This document shows positions 20,879 through 30,144 of a stretch of DNA of 64,000 bases, piece by piece. Origin of the DNA: an uncultured Solirubrobacterales bacterium. Lineage in GTDB: Bacteria; Actinomycetota; Thermoleophilia; Solirubrobacterales; 70-9. The notes below the pieces were generated by a model. It searched no databases, was not told where the DNA came from, and saw only the letters and a program-made list of their open reading frames with translations. Location: the NCBI GenBank assembly GCA_963840565.1, contig CAWIZH010000003.1, positions 150,210-214,209 on the forward strand, written 5' to 3'. The number at the start of each line of letters is the position of its first letter. The first letter of the stretch is position 1. The position numbers and the translations under genes were made by a program.

Positions 20879-22635
20879 TCGATTACTGCTAGGACGTCGC
20901 CGGAGGAAACAGCAGCGCCCTCCGTGACGTTGAGAGAGGTGACTTTTCCGGCGCGGTGGGCGACGATCTCGTTCTCCATCTTCATCGCCTCGATCACGCA
21001 GATCAGGTCGCCCTCGGCGACCTCGGCGCCTTTCTCGACCGCGACTTTGAAGACGGTGCCCTGCAGCGGCGAGGGCAACGACTCGCTCGAGGCGCCACCG
21101 CCGCCACCGGCCTTGCGCTCGCGTTTGGGCGGCCGCTTGCCGCCCGCGGCGGGCGCCGCACCACCGGCGATCGCCTCGCCGATCACCTTGACGTCGAAGA
21201 GCTTGCCGGAGACCTCAACCTTGTAGTCGCGGGCGACGACCTCGGCGCCCTCCTCGACCTCCGGCGCCTCGACCTGCTCCGGCGCCGTGGCCTTCAGCCA
21301 GTCCCGGTCCTCCATCAGGTCGCGGCAGGTCTCGCCCTTGGCCCACTGCTCGGTGGCGAGGATCGCTTCATGGAACGGGATCAGCGTGGTCAGGCCGCCG
21401 GAGTCGTATTCGCCGAGCGCCCGCAGCATCCGCCGCGTCGCCTTCTCGCGATCGACGTCCCAGACGATCAGCTTGGCCACCATCGGGTCGTACATCGGCG
21501 TCACCTCGGAGCCGCCTTCGACCCCGGAATCAACCCGCACGCCGGGCCCCGACGGCTCGCGGTAGGAGTCGCCGATCGGGCCGGGCGCGGGGGCGAATTT
21601 CTTGTGCGCCGCCTCGGCGTTGATCCGGCACTCAATCGACCAGCCGCGCAGCTCGACGTCCTCCTGGGCGATCGAGAGCGGCTCCCCGGCCGCGACCAGG
21701 ATCTGCTCGCGGACGATGTCGACGCCGCTGATCATCTCGGTCACGCAGTGCTCGACCTGCACCCGCGTGTTCATCTCGAGGAAGAAGTACTCGTCGCCGA
21801 CCTGCATGCCCTCGATCGTGCCGGCACCGCGGTAGCCGACCGCCGCCGCCGCGTCGGTGGCGATCTTGCCGATCCGCTCGCGCATCTCCTCGTCGACGTG
21901 CGGGCCCGGCGCCTCCTCGATCACCTTCTGATGACGGCGCTGGATCGAGCAGTCGCGCTCGCCGAGGTGGATCACGTTGCCGTGCGAGTCGGCGAGGACC
22001 TGGACCTCGACGTGGCGCGGGTCCTCCAGATAGCGCTCGACGTAGACGCGGTCGTCGGAGAAGAACTTCTCGCCTTCGCGGCCCGAGCCCTCGAAGGCCT
22101 CCTCGAGGTCGTCGGGGGTCATCGCGACGCGGAAGCCCTTGCCGCCGCCGCCGCCGGCGGCCTTGCAGGCGACCGGGTAGCCGGCTTCGTCGGCCTGGCG
22201 CCTGGCCTCCTCGAGGTCTTTGGCGACCTCGGTCGAGCCGGGGACGATCGGCACCCCGGCCTGCTCCATGATCTCGCGCGCCTTCGTCTTCGACCCCATC
22301 GCTTCGATCGCCTCCGGCGGTGGGCCGATCCAGGTGATGCCGGCCTCGGCGCAGGCGCGAGCCATCTCGGCGTTCTCGGCGAGGAAGCCGTAGCCGGGAT
22401 GAATGCCTTCCGCCCCCGCCTCCTTGGCCGTCTCGATGATCTTGGCGATGTTGAGGTAGCTCTCAGCCGGCACCGCGGGGCCGATCAGGAAGGCCTCGTC
22501 GGCCTCGCGCACGTGCGGCGCATCGCGATCGATCTCCGAGTAGACGGCGACCGAGCCGATGCCCATCTCCTTCAGGGTGCGGGCGACCCGGATCGCGATC
22601 TCGCCGCGGTTGGCTATGAGGACCTTCTGAAACAC
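20875..22635 (-). CDS. acetyl/propionyl-CoA carboxylase alpha chain (biotin carboxylase fused to BCCP)
   Basis: KVLIANRGEIAIRV, the ATP-grasp core, and the C-terminal biotinylation motif EAMKMENEI. The start codon is GTG. Confidence 0.92.
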   Translation of the reverse strand: MFQKVLIANRGEIAIRVARTLKEMGIGSVAVYSEIDRDAPHVREADEAFLIGPAVPAESYLNIAKIIETAKEAGAEGIHPGYGFLAENAEMARACAEAGITWIGPPPEAIEAMGSKTKAREIMEQAGVPIVPGSTEVAKDLEEARRQADEAGYPVACKAAGGGGGKGFRVAMTPDDLEEAFEGSGREGEKFFSDDRVYVERYLEDPRHVEVQVLADSHGNVIHLGERDCSIQRRHQKVIEEAPGPHVDEEMRERIGKIATDAAAAVGYRGAGTIEGMQVGDEYFFLEMNTRVQVEHCVTEMISGVDIVREQILVAAGEPLSIAQEDVELRGWSIECRINAEAAHKKFAPAPGPIGDSYREPSGPGVRVDSGVEGGSEVTPMYDPMVAKLIVWDVDREKATRRMLRALGEYDSGGLTTLIPFHEAILATEQWAKGETCRDLMEDRDWLKATAPEQVEAPEVEEGAEVVARDYKVEVSGKLFDVKVIGEAIAGGAAPAAGGKRPPKRERKAGGGGGASSESLPSPLQGTVFKVAVEKGAEVAEGDLICVIEAMKMENEIVAHRAGKVTSLNVTEGAAVSSGDVLAVIE

Positions 22636-22700
22636 GGGGGCGGCAGTCTATTTATGCGGGCGGCGGTCGGTCGCCAAGCCCGTCGACGCGCCAAGCCCAT

Positions 22701-23681
22701 TCAAATAACCAAAAACCGCATCCTCTCTGAGGGGGTGACCTCATCGAGCAAGGCGTAGATCAGGTCTCCGTAGCGCGACGCGCGATCTAGCGCCTCCGTT
22801 CGACTTTGAGGCTCGGCAAACTCAATCAGGAGGAGATCCTCATCGCTCTGCACCTGATCTAGGAATTCGCCGTACAGGACAGCGAGCTGGTCAACCAAGC
22901 TGGCTGCGATCTTGCCGCTCTCGCGTAGCCGATCGAACCGCTCAGCCGGTGTGATGCGACACAAATCGAAGACCTGATCTGGCTTGACAGGCGCCGGCAT
23001 GGCACTGAGATTGGCGACCATCGAAAAGCACGTGGCCAGACGGCTGACCTTGAGCTTGTAGTTCTTGAGCGCGCTGTCGGCCTTTTTGTGCCGAAGCTCC
23101 TCTTCGGTCAACGGCACCGCCAGATTGAGCCGATGGTGCTCATAGTTGAGCGTCAGAGTGCGCCAGAAGCGAAGGATGTCGTTGACCAAGAAGGTGGGAA
23201 GGAAGCTGTTGGCGTGGTCTGTGAAATCTCGGTAGTAGAAACCGATGATGCGCTCCAAGAGCCTCGTGTACACGGCCTCATCGTGCAGCGGCTGGCTCTC
23301 CAGCAGAAGCAGCATTCGCGCCGTGAACGCATTGAGTGAGTCGTCGTTTGGGCTCCCCAGCACCCGCTCCATTTCGCTCACGTACTGCACCTCGAGGTAC
23401 ATGCCGTCCTTCGAGAACGGCGGAAAGCCCATCCCTTGAGCGATCTCGATCAAACGCGCTGATAGCCGTACGAAACTCGTCCACGGGAAGCGTTCGGTCT
23501 TGTCGGCGCTGTCGTAGAGGAAGAACGGGTCAATATCCGATCCCGACCATGCCTCAAGGCGCCCAAACGAGCCGGTCACGTAAACGCACAGCGGATGCCC
23601 GTCCAACAACGGGCCCGCATCGAGTTGCTCACTGAGTTCGCGCAGTCGCCTCAGCGAGTAATCTCGGGGGGACTCATCCAC
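22701..23681 (-). CDS. stand-alone GlnD/GlnE/DUF294-like nucleotidyltransferase
   Basis: VTGSFGRLEAWSGSDIDPFFLY matches the G[GS]xGRxE...SD[IL]D pattern of the protein-NMPylating pol-beta NTases. TARMLLLLESQPLHDEAVY and NDILRFWRTLTL are like the GlnD helical region. GC is lower than the flanks. The start codon is GTG. Confidence 0.55.
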   Translation of the reverse strand: MDESPRDYSLRRLRELSEQLDAGPLLDGHPLCVYVTGSFGRLEAWSGSDIDPFFLYDSADKTERFPWTSFVRLSARLIEIAQGMGFPPFSKDGMYLEVQYVSEMERVLGSPNDDSLNAFTARMLLLLESQPLHDEAVYTRLLERIIGFYYRDFTDHANSFLPTFLVNDILRFWRTLTLNYEHHRLNLAVPLTEEELRHKKADSALKNYKLKVSRLATCFSMVANLSAMPAPVKPDQVFDLCRITPAERFDRLRESGKIAASLVDQLAVLYGEFLDQVQSDEDLLLIEFAEPQSRTEALDRASRYGDLIYALLDEVTPSERMRFLVI

Positions 23682-23741
23682 GGGCCGCAGAATACGGCTT
23701 TAGGCAACTACGTCCGCCACGACCCCGATGATCATCGTGCC

Positions 23742-24416
23742 ATGAATACGCCTGCAATACGCCCCGATCTCTATATATCCGCCGATGTCGAGACCGACGG
23801 ATCGGTTCCAGGTCCCTACTCACTTCTTTCCTTCGGCCTGTCTGCCGTCGGCAAATACGACGGGCAGAGCTTTGAGCGCTGGCCGGGTCGAGAACGAACC
23901 TTCTATCGCGAACTGAAGCCGATTTCTCCAGACTTCCAACCAGAAGCGCTCGAGGTCAATGGCCTTGATCGCGATCAGCTTCTCGAGACGGGACACGACC
24001 CAGCCGAGGCAATGACCGAAGCGGCCGAGTGGGTCAGGTCGATGTGCCCGGAGTGCAGACCGGTCCTAGTCGCGTATCCGGTCGCATTTGATTGGGCCTT
24101 CCTCTACTGGTATTTCGAGCGCTTTGCGCCCGAGGGCTCTCCCTTTGGGCACTCGTCGTGCCTCGACATCCGCACCCTTTACCAGGCTGTGGCCGGTACG
24201 GTCTTCGATCGATCCGGCAAGACCGCGATGCCCGACTTCTTGCGCCCGAGTTCCCCGCATACCCATAATGCGCTCGATGACGCGATCGAGCAAGGGGAGC
24301 TGTTTGCGAATCTTCTGGACTGGTCTATGCGTCGACGAGAGAGCGTCGTTCGCCAGGACGAGCCGCAGAACTCCGGGCCATCATGGCTGACCCCCCATAT
24401 CCTGCGGATTGCTTGA
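23742..24416 (+). CDS. DEDDh (DnaQ-like) 3'-5' exonuclease
   Basis: Exo I YISADVETDG, Exo II AYPVAFDWAFLYWY, Exo III HTHNALDDAIEQ. The ATG at 23742 lies within the longer ORF. Confidence 0.7.
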   Translation: MNTPAIRPDLYISADVETDGSVPGPYSLLSFGLSAVGKYDGQSFERWPGRERTFYRELKPISPDFQPEALEVNGLDRDQLLETGHDPAEAMTEAAEWVRSMCPECRPVLVAYPVAFDWAFLYWYFERFAPEGSPFGHSSCLDIRTLYQAVAGTVFDRSGKTAMPDFLRPSSPHTHNALDDAIEQGELFANLLDWSMRRRESVVRQDEPQNSGPSWLTPHILRIA

Positions 24417-24457
24417 CCCGCCGTTCCGAGCTCCCCTAGGCCTGAGAATCCCGCTGC

Positions 24458-25273
24458 GTGCTGATCGAGCTCCAAAGTCATTCGACCGTTTCCGATGGGC
24501 AGCTTGCGCCCGGGGAAGTCGTCGCGCAGGCCTGGGAAGCGGGCGTCACGACGCTGGCCCTGACCGACCACGATGCGATTGCCGGGGTGGCTGAGGCCGC
24601 TGAGGCCGCTCAGGGTCTGGGCGTTGAGCTGGTGCCGGCGATCGAGATGTCCTGCGTGCACGAGTACGCCGAAGACCTCCACGTCTGCGGCTACTGGGTC
24701 GACCTGGAGGCGATCGCGCCGGCCTGCGAGCGGGCGCAGAAGGAGCGGGTCGACCGGGCCGAGGCGATCATCAAGCGCTTGCGGGGCTGGGGCTTTGAAA
24801 TCAAACTTGAGGACGCGATCAAAGAGGCCGGTGACGCGCTCTCGATCGGCCGCCCCCACATCGCCAAGGCAGCCGGCGCGACCGGCGACCTAGGTCCCTT
24901 CTTCGAGGAGTACCTGGTGCCAGGAGCCAAGGCCTTCGTCCCTCGCGAGTGGCCCACGGCAGAGCAGGCAATAGCCCTGATCCGAGAGGCAGGCGGAGCA
25001 GCCGTAATCGCCCACCCCTACTGGGACATCAAAGACCCCACTGAGGTAGAGGACCTGATCCGCTCCCTAGGAGCCGACGGCGTAGAGACCTTCTATCCCT
25101 CGCACACCAAGGAGCAAACCAAGCATCTGCTCGACCTCTGCGAGGAGCTGAACCTCACTCCCACAGCCTCGTCGGACTACCACGGCCCGACCCACAAGAC
25201 GTTTTCGAAGTTCGGGGACTACGACACCTACGGCCTCGGTGAGCCTCAAGTCCCTGAGAAGGAGGGGCGGTGA
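24458..25273 (+). CDS. PHP-domain phosphoesterase (TrpH/YciV-like)
   Basis: IELQSHSTVSDG, LALTDHDAIAG, IAHPYW and SDYHG metal-ligand motifs. The start codon is GTG. Confidence 0.8.
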   Translation: MLIELQSHSTVSDGQLAPGEVVAQAWEAGVTTLALTDHDAIAGVAEAAEAAQGLGVELVPAIEMSCVHEYAEDLHVCGYWVDLEAIAPACERAQKERVDRAEAIIKRLRGWGFEIKLEDAIKEAGDALSIGRPHIAKAAGATGDLGPFFEEYLVPGAKAFVPREWPTAEQAIALIREAGGAAVIAHPYWDIKDPTEVEDLIRSLGADGVETFYPSHTKEQTKHLLDLCEELNLTPTASSDYHGPTHKTFSKFGDYDTYGLGEPQVPEKEGR

Positions 25274-25337
25274 CCCCTCTCCAAACACTCAAGAGCGGCC
25301 TCCGGCCGCTCGTTTGGGGAGGGGTTGCCGCCCCTCC
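25261..25337. repeat. family-A conserved-core hairpin element, copy 1
   Basis: GGAGGGGCGGTGACCCCTCTCCAAAC | ACTCAAGAGCGGCCTCCGGCCGCTC | GTTTGGGGAGGGGTTGCCGCCCCTCC. The arms pair at 23 Watson-Crick plus 3 G:T positions. Confidence 0.85.
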
Positions 25338-25350
25338 CCACGCATAGTCC

Positions 25351-25905
25351 TTAAGCGGTAACCGCAGCCGCCGGAATCAGGTCCCGCGACTCCAAGTACT
25401 CGAGCAGCTTCTGCGCCGACTCCTCAGGAGTCTCGTTCTCCGTGTCGCAGACCCAAGCCGGGTTCTCCGGAATCTCGTACGGGTCACTGACGCCAGTGAA
25501 TTCCTTGATCTCACCCGAGAACGCCTTGGCGTAAAGCCCCTTGACATCACGCTCGGCGCAGGTGTCGACCGAGGCCTTGACGTAGACCTCGATGAAGCGA
25601 TCGCCCATCAGCTCGTGGGCCTCGTCGCGGATCTCGGCGTAAGGCGAGATCGCGGCGGTGATCACCGGCACGCCGTTGCGGGAGAGCAGGTCGGCGACGA
25701 AGGCGATGCGACGGATGTTGATGTCGCGGTCCTCCTTGGAGAAGCCGAGCCCCTTGGAGAGGTTTTCGCGCACGACGTCGCCGTCGAGGATCTCGAGCTT
25801 CGAGCCGCGGTTTCGCAGCTCGGTCTCGAGCAGCCCGGAAATGGTCGTCTTGCCGGCACCGGAGAGTCCGGTGAACCAGAGGGTGAAGCCCTTCTCGCCA
25901 GCCAT
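25351..25905 (-). CDS. cysC: adenylylsulfate (APS) kinase
   Basis: FTGLSGAGKTTISG P-loop, LDGDVVRENL, and a length of 184 aa. Confidence 0.92.
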   Translation of the reverse strand: MAGEKGFTLWFTGLSGAGKTTISGLLETELRNRGSKLEILDGDVVRENLSKGLGFSKEDRDINIRRIAFVADLLSRNGVPVITAAISPYAEIRDEAHELMGDRFIEVYVKASVDTCAERDVKGLYAKAFSGEIKEFTGVSDPYEIPENPAWVCDTENETPEESAQKLLEYLESRDLIPAAAVTA

Positions 25906-30068: not shown

Positions 30069-30144
30069 GAGGGGCAGGTGCCCCCTCCCAAAACACTCAA
30101 GAGCGGCTCCTGCCGCTCGTTTTGGGAGGGGGCACCTGCCCCTC
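30069..30144. repeat. family-A conserved-core hairpin element, copy 2
   Basis: GAGGGGCAGGTGCCCCCTCCCAAAAC | ACTCAAGAGCGGCTCCTGCCGCTC | GTTTTGGGAGGGGGCACCTGCCCCTC. The arms are 26 bp and perfect. Confidence 0.88.

Follow-up and report, generated by a model that had tools for sequence, protein, structure and literature searches.

The stretch of DNA analysed here (the window) covers 64,000 nucleotides (nt) of contig CAWIZH010000003.1 in assembly GCA_963840565.1 (positions 150,210 to 214,209), from an uncultured Solirubrobacterales bacterium. Between the core genes accA and PHP it contains an accessory insert of low guanine-plus-cytosine (GC) content with a nucleotidyltransferase (NTase) gene and a divergent DEDDh exonuclease gene. 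The insert measures 1,792 nt (22667..24458) and was delimited by comparison with the related genome L093. On the minus strand, the NTase gene (22701..23681) encodes a protein of 326 amino acids with a Pol-beta fold and an all-helical C-terminal domain, classified as DUF294/GlnE-like using Pfam, an AlphaFold2 (AF2) model and alignment. The exonuclease gene lies on the plus strand (23742..24416), and its product of 224 amino acids was placed by phmmer, Foldseek and PADLOC in the clade of Cap18 and the 'Exo' proteins associated with CBASS, a system of antiphage signalling based on cyclic oligonucleotides. A divergent intergenic region of 60 nt (23682..23741) separates the two genes. PHP, an open reading frame (ORF) matching Pfam PHP, starts 41 nt past the exonuclease stop codon on the same strand (24458..25273), while accA, whose product is a biotin carboxylase/biotin carboxyl carrier protein, is the core gene on the other side of the insert.

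A sequence-only reading of the window had described a low-GC islet at 22640-24420, with hand counts of 53-62% GC against about 70% in the flanks, and had taken this as a sign of horizontal acquisition. The measured values agree with that description. The GC content of 22640-24420 was 59.5% versus a window mean of 67.5% (standard deviation (sd) 2.6%, 1.78-kb windows), which makes it the lowest-GC 1.78-kb stretch in the window (0.16 percentile, ~3 sd under the mean). With 300-nt windows, 55-63% GC was found inside the stretch and 65-73% in the flanks. The GC content at third codon positions was likewise atypical: the NTase had 0.75 and the exonuclease 0.68, compared with 0.86-0.94 for the neighbouring genes. 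In L093 (GCA_037025605.1), whose flanks are ~93% identical to the window, the site is empty: the gap between accA and PHP is 48 nt and contains neither the NTase nor the exonuclease. Homology between the window and L093 ends at 22666 and restarts at 24459, so that the insert nearly coincides with the islet noted before; it took the place of the original sequence as far as the start codon of PHP. The empty site in a 93%-identical relative demonstrates the acquisition of the insert directly. Searches for att-like direct repeats and terminal inverted repeats around the insert returned short matches only, and none of them brackets it.

The gene order common to L093 and the window is sulfatase - accA - PHP - cysC - sat - cysH - sulfite reductase. 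Exactly at the accA|PHP junction, a Fic-domain (AMPylase/Doc-type) gene was found in L095 (5878-6789) and L096 (5874-6899), and the NTase-exonuclease pair was present there in three more distant relatives (L001, L007 and L008). Since the junction is empty in L093, occupied by the Fic gene in two genomes and by the pair in three others, it is regarded as a variable integration hotspot.

The NTase carries the motif GSFGRLE...SDID, with the catalytic residues G37, S38, D49 and D51. It matched Pfam DUF294 (PF03445) with 28.4 bits, above the cut-off of 21, and the Pfam scan returned no CBS, cNMP, ACT, HD or DUF294_C domain; both the GlnD/GlnE/DUF294 signature and the lack of sensor domains had been expected from the sequence. 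Over 61 homologues down to 30% identity, 23 residues including G37, S38, D49 and D51 were invariant, which indicates that the enzyme is active and that its acceptor site is defined. The AF2 model (predicted local distance difference test (pLDDT) 96.4) consists of a Pol-beta core followed by a long helical domain. Its top PDB fold was the N-terminal adenylyltransferase domain of GlnE (1v4a, E 4e-4, template modelling (TM) score 0.49/0.39, root-mean-square deviation (rmsd) 7.4 Å), followed by DrrA and then by AadA/ANT and MNT, with TM scores of 0.45-0.49 for GlnE and DrrA. Because of these fold matches, the NTase was assigned as GlnE/DUF294-like and not as a cGAS/DncV-like nucleotidyltransferase (CD-NTase). 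Pfam gave no SMODS match and PADLOC matched no cyclase model; the sole possible sequence trace of a CD-NTase was a profile match (E 0.018) to two entries labelled just 'Nucleotidyltransferase' (6p8u and 6p82), limited to ~60 profile positions at the N-terminus. A single-sequence search of the PDB gave nothing at E <= 10, and the profile search gave just generic matches to minimal NTases, MNT and the DrrA N-terminus. Foldseek against viral structures found no match at E <= 0.001, and no family in PHROGs matched the NTase.

The sole PADLOC match of the NTase was the candidate component PDC-M70A (4e-21, 73.7 bits). Together with the PDB result and the GlnE TM score of 0.49, this shows the NTase to match no characterised family; a match to one with a known unrelated role had been named in the sequence-only reading as evidence against it. 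The PDC-M70A model scored 182 bits for an E. coli NTase carried by a 4.5-kb plasmid and 74 bits for that of the window, and since it fits the plasmid protein far better, PDC-M70A is taken to represent a third, related NTase clade. For PDC-M70B, no model match was obtained at E <= 0.01 for the exonuclease or PHP, nor among the matches listed for the 2H phosphoesterase-like partners described below. The module is thus not demonstrably PDC-M70, although the component A model weakly matches its NTase, and literature searches found no description of the NTase-exonuclease pair. The PDC-M70A-type NTase of E. coli was located at 211-1706 of a 4.5-kb ColE1-like Rop plasmid (L092, NZ_CP092257.1), where it comes after an unannotated ORF of 157 amino acids and no phosphodiesterase partner is visible; this type was present in just one of 5,426 complete E. 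coli genomes.

The exonuclease ORF as listed opens at 23595. Since homologues measure 222-224 amino acids, ATG 23742 was taken as the true start, which gives a protein of 224 residues and a divergent gap of exactly 60 nt, the distance reported earlier. Pfam RNase_T was matched with 29.2 bits (cut-off 24). The DEDDh residues are complete (D15, E17, D117, H175 and D180, equivalent to D12, E14, D104, H160 and D165 of Cap18) and were invariant in 32 homologues. Beyond the DEDDh class recognised before, the protein could be specified as Cap18/CBASS-Exo-like: phmmer against the PDB gave 103.6 bits (E 1.1e-28) for Cap18 of E. coli upec-117 (7T2S) and 34.5 bits (1e-7) for RNase T. The AF2 model had a pLDDT of 86 and a disordered C-terminal tail, and its top Foldseek match was again 7T2S (E 4.6e-17, TM 0.91, rmsd 2.0 Å, 32% identity), with RNase T as runner-up (~1e-11, TM ~0.73). 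In PADLOC, the CBASS 'Effector: Exonuclease' model reached 4.6e-42 and the generic DEDDh model 9e-12.

According to a preprint dated 2026-08-12 (bioRxiv 10.1101/2025.03.04.641389), the CBASS Exo proteins, of which those of S. marcescens, of V. cholerae and of E. coli were tested, form a distinct DEDDh clade that has no detectable DNA or RNA nuclease activity, selectively cleaves 2'-5'-linked linear dinucleotide intermediates as well as 2',5'-oligoadenylate (2-5A), and by this cleavage sets the threshold for cGAS activation. Cap18 was named in the study of CapW, in which a catalytic-dead mutant left protection unaffected (bioRxiv 10.1101/2022.01.04.474952). Residue 21 of the window exonuclease (23802-23804) is Ser, and this position is Pro in >90% of the family, in the motif DGPVPGP. 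In the alignment Ser21 pairs with P18 of Cap18, a non-catalytic mapping that was judged unreliable; the equally numbered Pro of the S. marcescens Exo (P18; P15 in the V. cholerae Exo) was mutated to shift linkage preference (bioRxiv 10.1101/2025.03.04.641389). A stand-alone Cap18-like exonuclease, 35% identical to that of the window, was also found on the Klebsiella pneumoniae IncFIB plasmid pMTY12137 (L089, 5998-6546). It adjoins umuD on conjugative plasmids without NTase or CBASS genes, and ~40 Klebsiella plasmids matched.

In the divergent intergenic region, a -10-like TATTCT box (23689-23694, minus strand) stands 7 nt before the GTG start codon of the NTase. A TATNCT box was found 7-9 nt upstream of the NTase start in most of 20 aligned exonuclease-partnered loci, with a CGGACG motif farther upstream, and a generic sigma-70 scan found no promoter. 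This arrangement suggests that the NTase transcript may be leaderless and that the divergent control region may be shared.

The NTase family comprised 1,243 clusters at 50% identity (E <= 1e-3), of which 276 were at E <= 1e-30, and at least 572 NTase loci were found in GTDB species genomes. The phyla included Actinomycetota, Pseudomonadota, Acidobacteriota, Bacteroidota, Chloroflexota, Planctomycetota, Myxococcota and others. Pairing was inspected in 86 loci, namely six from context look-ups and the best 80 of the genome scan. Across the 80 related loci, from many phyla, a phosphodiesterase partner was almost always beside the NTase. Wherever the NTase was at least 50% identical to that of the window, an exonuclease homologue was immediately upstream and divergent, with the sole exception of L020, where the NTase is at a contig edge; conservation of the two genes side by side had been named as a check in the sequence-only reading, and it holds wherever the flank is long enough. 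The exonuclease also adjoins the NTase in a second Solirubrobacterales clade (NTases of 40-43% identity), and in L081, L082 and the viral-collection contig L087 it is co-directional and upstream. The metagenomic protein P0199 (548 amino acids, L097:1012-2658) is a natural Exo-NTase fusion. Loci without a partner were three cut contigs (L020, L051 and L076), an insertion sequence (IS)-flanked copy (L033) and L060, with none in the 1.2 kb to the contig end. In L033 (6867-10059), the NTase is bracketed by two inverted transposase genes of 346 amino acids each and has no phosphodiesterase beside it; the locus looks composite-transposon-like or disrupted.

No third gene was conserved among 30 pair loci, and 175 of 181 neighbouring proteins were non-redundant between loci. 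In 32 of 35 loci, the exonuclease-NTase pair had a GC content below that of its flanks (mean -6 points). A search of 2.9 million viral contigs turned up just one relative, that of L087, in which the exonuclease is also present. A phage-borne origin was rejected, as L087 was the only viral-contig locus. Plasmids carried distant NTase relatives only (22-29% identity) and no close one. The NTase and the Cap18-like exonuclease are inherited as a pair, and the insertion in the window is accessory and lies at a hotspot.

A neighbour-joining tree of the NTases showed a clean split between the exonuclease-partnered clade and a second clade (41 loci) in which a protein of ~200 amino acids is encoded after the NTase, usually 0-20 nt away. 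The GC content of the NTase in this second clade was below that of the flanks in 40 of 41 loci (mean -12.6 points). The partner carries the motifs aHxTVRgPy ... PHiTlYDG; in 35 sequences H35, T37 and H97 were invariant and T99 was conserved in at least 90%. The top PDB profile match of the partner was the 2H enzyme Acb1 (E 0.29), with both H-x-T motifs aligned. The 2H superfamily also includes 2-5A phosphodiesterases, and Acb1 acts on short nucleotide signals. In ~14 of the 41 loci, the putative 2H domain stands at the N-terminus of a larger enzyme, either a type II N6-adenine methyltransferase (PADLOC 2.6e-82) or a complete restriction-methylase of type IIG (restriction endonuclease-methyltransferase, PADLOC 5e-177). 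In P0143 (L098:2999-4483), the NTase itself begins with a TIR domain (Pfam TIR_2, 7e-21), and a 2H gene comes next.

Some pairs have neighbours that point to genomic conflict. In L003 the pair adjoins genes for a NERD protein and for type I restriction-modification, in L002 it is beside a TrwC relaxase, and at other loci integrases and LmuB/PtuA/AriA-like genes were found.

The PHP gene downstream had been thought possibly to belong to the same unit, and this did not hold. Many homologues of the PHP protein are 83-95% identical to it, while the closest NTase homologues are 85% and then ~80% identical. PHP is conserved, stays at the locus when the pair is absent and does not occur in any other pair locus; in evolutionary terms it is therefore no part of the module, and this core gene was rejected as a third component. 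Its best NCBIfam match was the 3',5'-nucleoside bisphosphate (pAp) phosphatase (176 bits, below the cut-off of 400 bits), with RNase RNM second. It adjoins the genes of the 3'-phosphoadenosine 5'-phosphosulfate (PAPS) pathway (cysC-sat-cysH-sulfite reductase), a position that a pAp phosphatase role would fit. PHP is a resident housekeeping gene of the sulfate-assimilation locus that probably encodes a pAp phosphatase and may act in the manner of CysQ. The terminator scan found none between the exonuclease and PHP, and since the insert also reaches the PHP start, transcription from the exonuclease gene may now run on into PHP. A near-perfect hairpin of ~80 nt (25259-25339, -71 kcal/mol) was observed between PHP and cysC, which are convergent, with a partial copy at 30077-30131 of the window and two copies in L093. 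It looks like a repetitive extragenic palindromic (REP)-like repeat or a bidirectional terminator; in Rfam, it was the sole match in 22000-25500, lying outside the insert and labelled as a spurious microRNA.

The closest characterised relatives of the exonuclease are the Cap18/Exo proteins (E. coli upec-117 7T2S, S. marcescens and V. cholerae), with which it shares the DEDDh fold and all five catalytic residues. The gene also stands beside a nucleotidyltransferase, as in CBASS, and by the same logic it may act as a brake on a product or intermediate of the transferase. However, the partner in the window is not a CD-NTase, and no gene for an effector, for Cap2/Cap3 or for HORMA/TRIP13 accompanies it. 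Effectors of the CBASS types (phospholipase, nuclease, transmembrane, TIR and SAVED) were sought in the two-gene insert and none was found. Membership in CBASS was rejected, as the insert consists of two genes only, with neither a CD-NTase nor an effector. The NTase shares the G-S-x10-D-x-D Pol-beta core and the helical domain after it with GlnD, GlnE, DrrA and DUF294 proteins, but the cNMP, CBS, ACT, HD and DUF294_C domains of canonical DUF294/GlnD proteins are absent and the TM score is ~0.5. GlnD couples a writer to a phosphodiesterase eraser; in the system of the window the eraser would be a separate DEDDh protein, and elsewhere a 2H protein. The pairs of toxSAS with a small alarmone hydrolase and of DarT with DarG are enzyme-reversal toxin-antitoxin pairs. 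They likewise consist of two adjacent mobile genes, for a maker and a hydrolyser of a nucleotide-containing product or modification, and would be comparable in this respect, although their protein families are unrelated to those of the window. As in toxin-antitoxin and abortive-infection systems, the genes of the window pair are adjacent and inherited together on mobile DNA. By analogy, the pair may function as a CBASS cyclase does together with its Cap18 brake, or in the manner of an enzyme-reversal toxin-antitoxin pair, with a different transferase.

We propose that the two genes of the insert form a 'writer/eraser' module, self-contained and horizontally mobile, of abortive-infection or toxin-antitoxin-like type. 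This is our working model, judged from the sequences, and we give it slightly less than an even chance. The NTase would use nucleoside triphosphates (NTPs) to attach a nucleoside monophosphate (NMP) to an acceptor, a nucleotide or RNA, at one of its ribose hydroxyls, giving a product with a non-canonical phosphodiester bond, most likely 2'-5'. The exonuclease would hydrolyse this bond to release 5'-NMP and hold the product under a threshold, in the way that Cap18/Exo acts on the cGAS intermediate in CBASS, and the balance of the two enzymes would set that threshold. Activation of the NTase, or loss or inhibition of the exonuclease, for instance when a phage infects the cell, would tip the balance, and growth would stop because the product builds up or NTPs are drained. 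In the fused variants, a restriction enzyme or TIR effector may be under the control of the same nucleotide chemistry. The two alternative partners, DEDDh and 2H, are unrelated phosphodiesterases that have in common their action on short nucleotide signals, including 2'-5' linkages; since one is replaced by the other, non-orthologous partner and the exonuclease also occurs fused to the NTase, the partner probably acts on the NTase product. We also infer that the pair may serve in defence.

Several points weigh against the writer/eraser model. The nearest folds of the NTase (GlnE, DrrA and AadA/ANT) move NMP onto protein tyrosines or sugars and not onto nucleotides, and no cGAS, DncV, OAS or Cdn structure was among its top 50 fold matches; the NTase product, its acceptor and any toxicity are themselves deduced. 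The minimal form has two genes and no effector, which a signalling model would need. The CBASS exonuclease model gave the window protein 142 bits and a bona fide CBASS copy 282 bits, the latter from a type II CBASS on an Acinetobacter plasmid with the order SAVED - Exo - NTase - ThiF - JAB, and because of this difference the window exonuclease is considered a sister group and not a CBASS orthologue. It also has an insertion of ~15 residues relative to Cap18, and its substrate preference may therefore differ. The residues published for the 2'-5' specificity of the V. cholerae Exo (P15, D49, E51, V55, N97 and F120; bioRxiv 10.1101/2025.03.04.641389) could not be reliably mapped onto it, numbering and gaps being uncertain. 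The partner in the second clade is read as a 2H phosphoesterase from its motifs and from sub-threshold profiles, Pfam 2_5_RNA_ligase2 reaching 16-26 bits in five of six members, below the cut-off of 27 bits. The loci inspected from the genome scan were the best 80 of at least 572. Many neighbours of the pairs are ordinary housekeeping genes, and enrichment in defence islands was not demonstrated statistically.

A rival explanation is reversible protein nucleotidylylation, in which the NTase would AMPylate or UMPylate a Tyr, Ser or Thr of a cellular or phage protein and the exonuclease or 2H protein would be the eraser, replacing the HD 'uridylyl-removing' domain of GlnD. The best structural neighbours of the NTase are the protein adenylyltransferases GlnE (E 4e-4) and DrrA, the DUF294 cut-off is reached, a Fic-domain (AMPylase-type) gene occupies the identical site in two relatives, and GlnD itself has the architecture of a writer with a phosphodiesterase eraser. 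However, the TM scores are only 0.45-0.49, we know of no DEDDh or 2H enzyme that hydrolyses protein-O-NMP bonds, both partner families act on nucleotides or oligonucleotides, and no conserved candidate target protein lies nearby, so that we regard this explanation as unlikely. A toxin-antitoxin pair could instead act on RNA, the NTase adding nucleotides to the 3' ends of transfer RNA (tRNA) or other RNA and the exonuclease or 2H protein trimming them. MenT and AbiEii are NTase toxins that block RNA 3' ends, the exonuclease fold is also close to that of RNase T, a trimmer of tRNA 3' ends, and the pair is mobile, self-contained and limited to two genes. We nevertheless consider RNA tailing quite unlikely: the exonuclease is far nearer to Cap18 than to RNase T (103.6 versus 34.5 bits), enzymes of the Cap18 clade were reported to be inactive on ordinary DNA and RNA, 2H enzymes are not 3' exonucleases, and the NTase matches no PADLOC model besides PDC-M70A.

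As counter-defence or immune-regulatory cargo, the phosphodiesterase would destroy the nucleotide signals of other systems and the NTase would modify or cap them, either in the service of a mobile element or in tuning the signalling immunity of the host. Both partner families include signal degraders (Cap18/Exo and Acb1), and stand-alone Cap18-like exonucleases are found beside umuD on conjugative plasmids. The distribution of the NTase makes such a role improbable: 2.9 million viral contigs yielded one relative and plasmids no close one, and the pair lies in chromosomal hotspots with no mobile-element genes in the window; moreover, conservation of the NTase is just as strict as that of the phosphodiesterase, which degradation alone leaves unexplained. 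A further view is that these are ordinary adenine-thymine-rich housekeeping genes of nucleotide or RNA metabolism without a conflict function. It would be in keeping with the many housekeeping neighbours, the wide conservation of the pair in Solirubrobacterales and the >600 NTase homologues, but it is very improbable in view of the presence and absence of the pair at one site between 93%-identical genomes, its variable location and systematic compositional deviation, the fusions to TIR and restriction-modification proteins, and one IS-flanked copy.

In its widest form, the writer/eraser model would describe a widespread nucleotide immune system without an effector. The 2'-5'-linked product of a GlnE-like transferase, or an NTP-draining futile cycle, would be the weapon itself, interchangeable 2'-5' phosphodiesterases (DEDDh or 2H) would restrain it, and fusions would wire it into restriction and TIR systems, making it a prokaryotic counterpart, with different folds, of OAS and the 2-5A phosphodiesterase. 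This extension is a rather doubtful one. The module is small (1.8 kb, two genes, clear catalytic residues) and therefore directly testable. If the model is true, Cap18-type and 2H-type phosphodiesterases would be general, interchangeable brakes on nucleotide-making enzymes far beyond CBASS. The 2H-restriction and TIR-NTase fusions suggest a new coupling of nucleotide chemistry to classical defence, and the large family of stand-alone GlnE/DUF294-like transferases would gain its first functional context.

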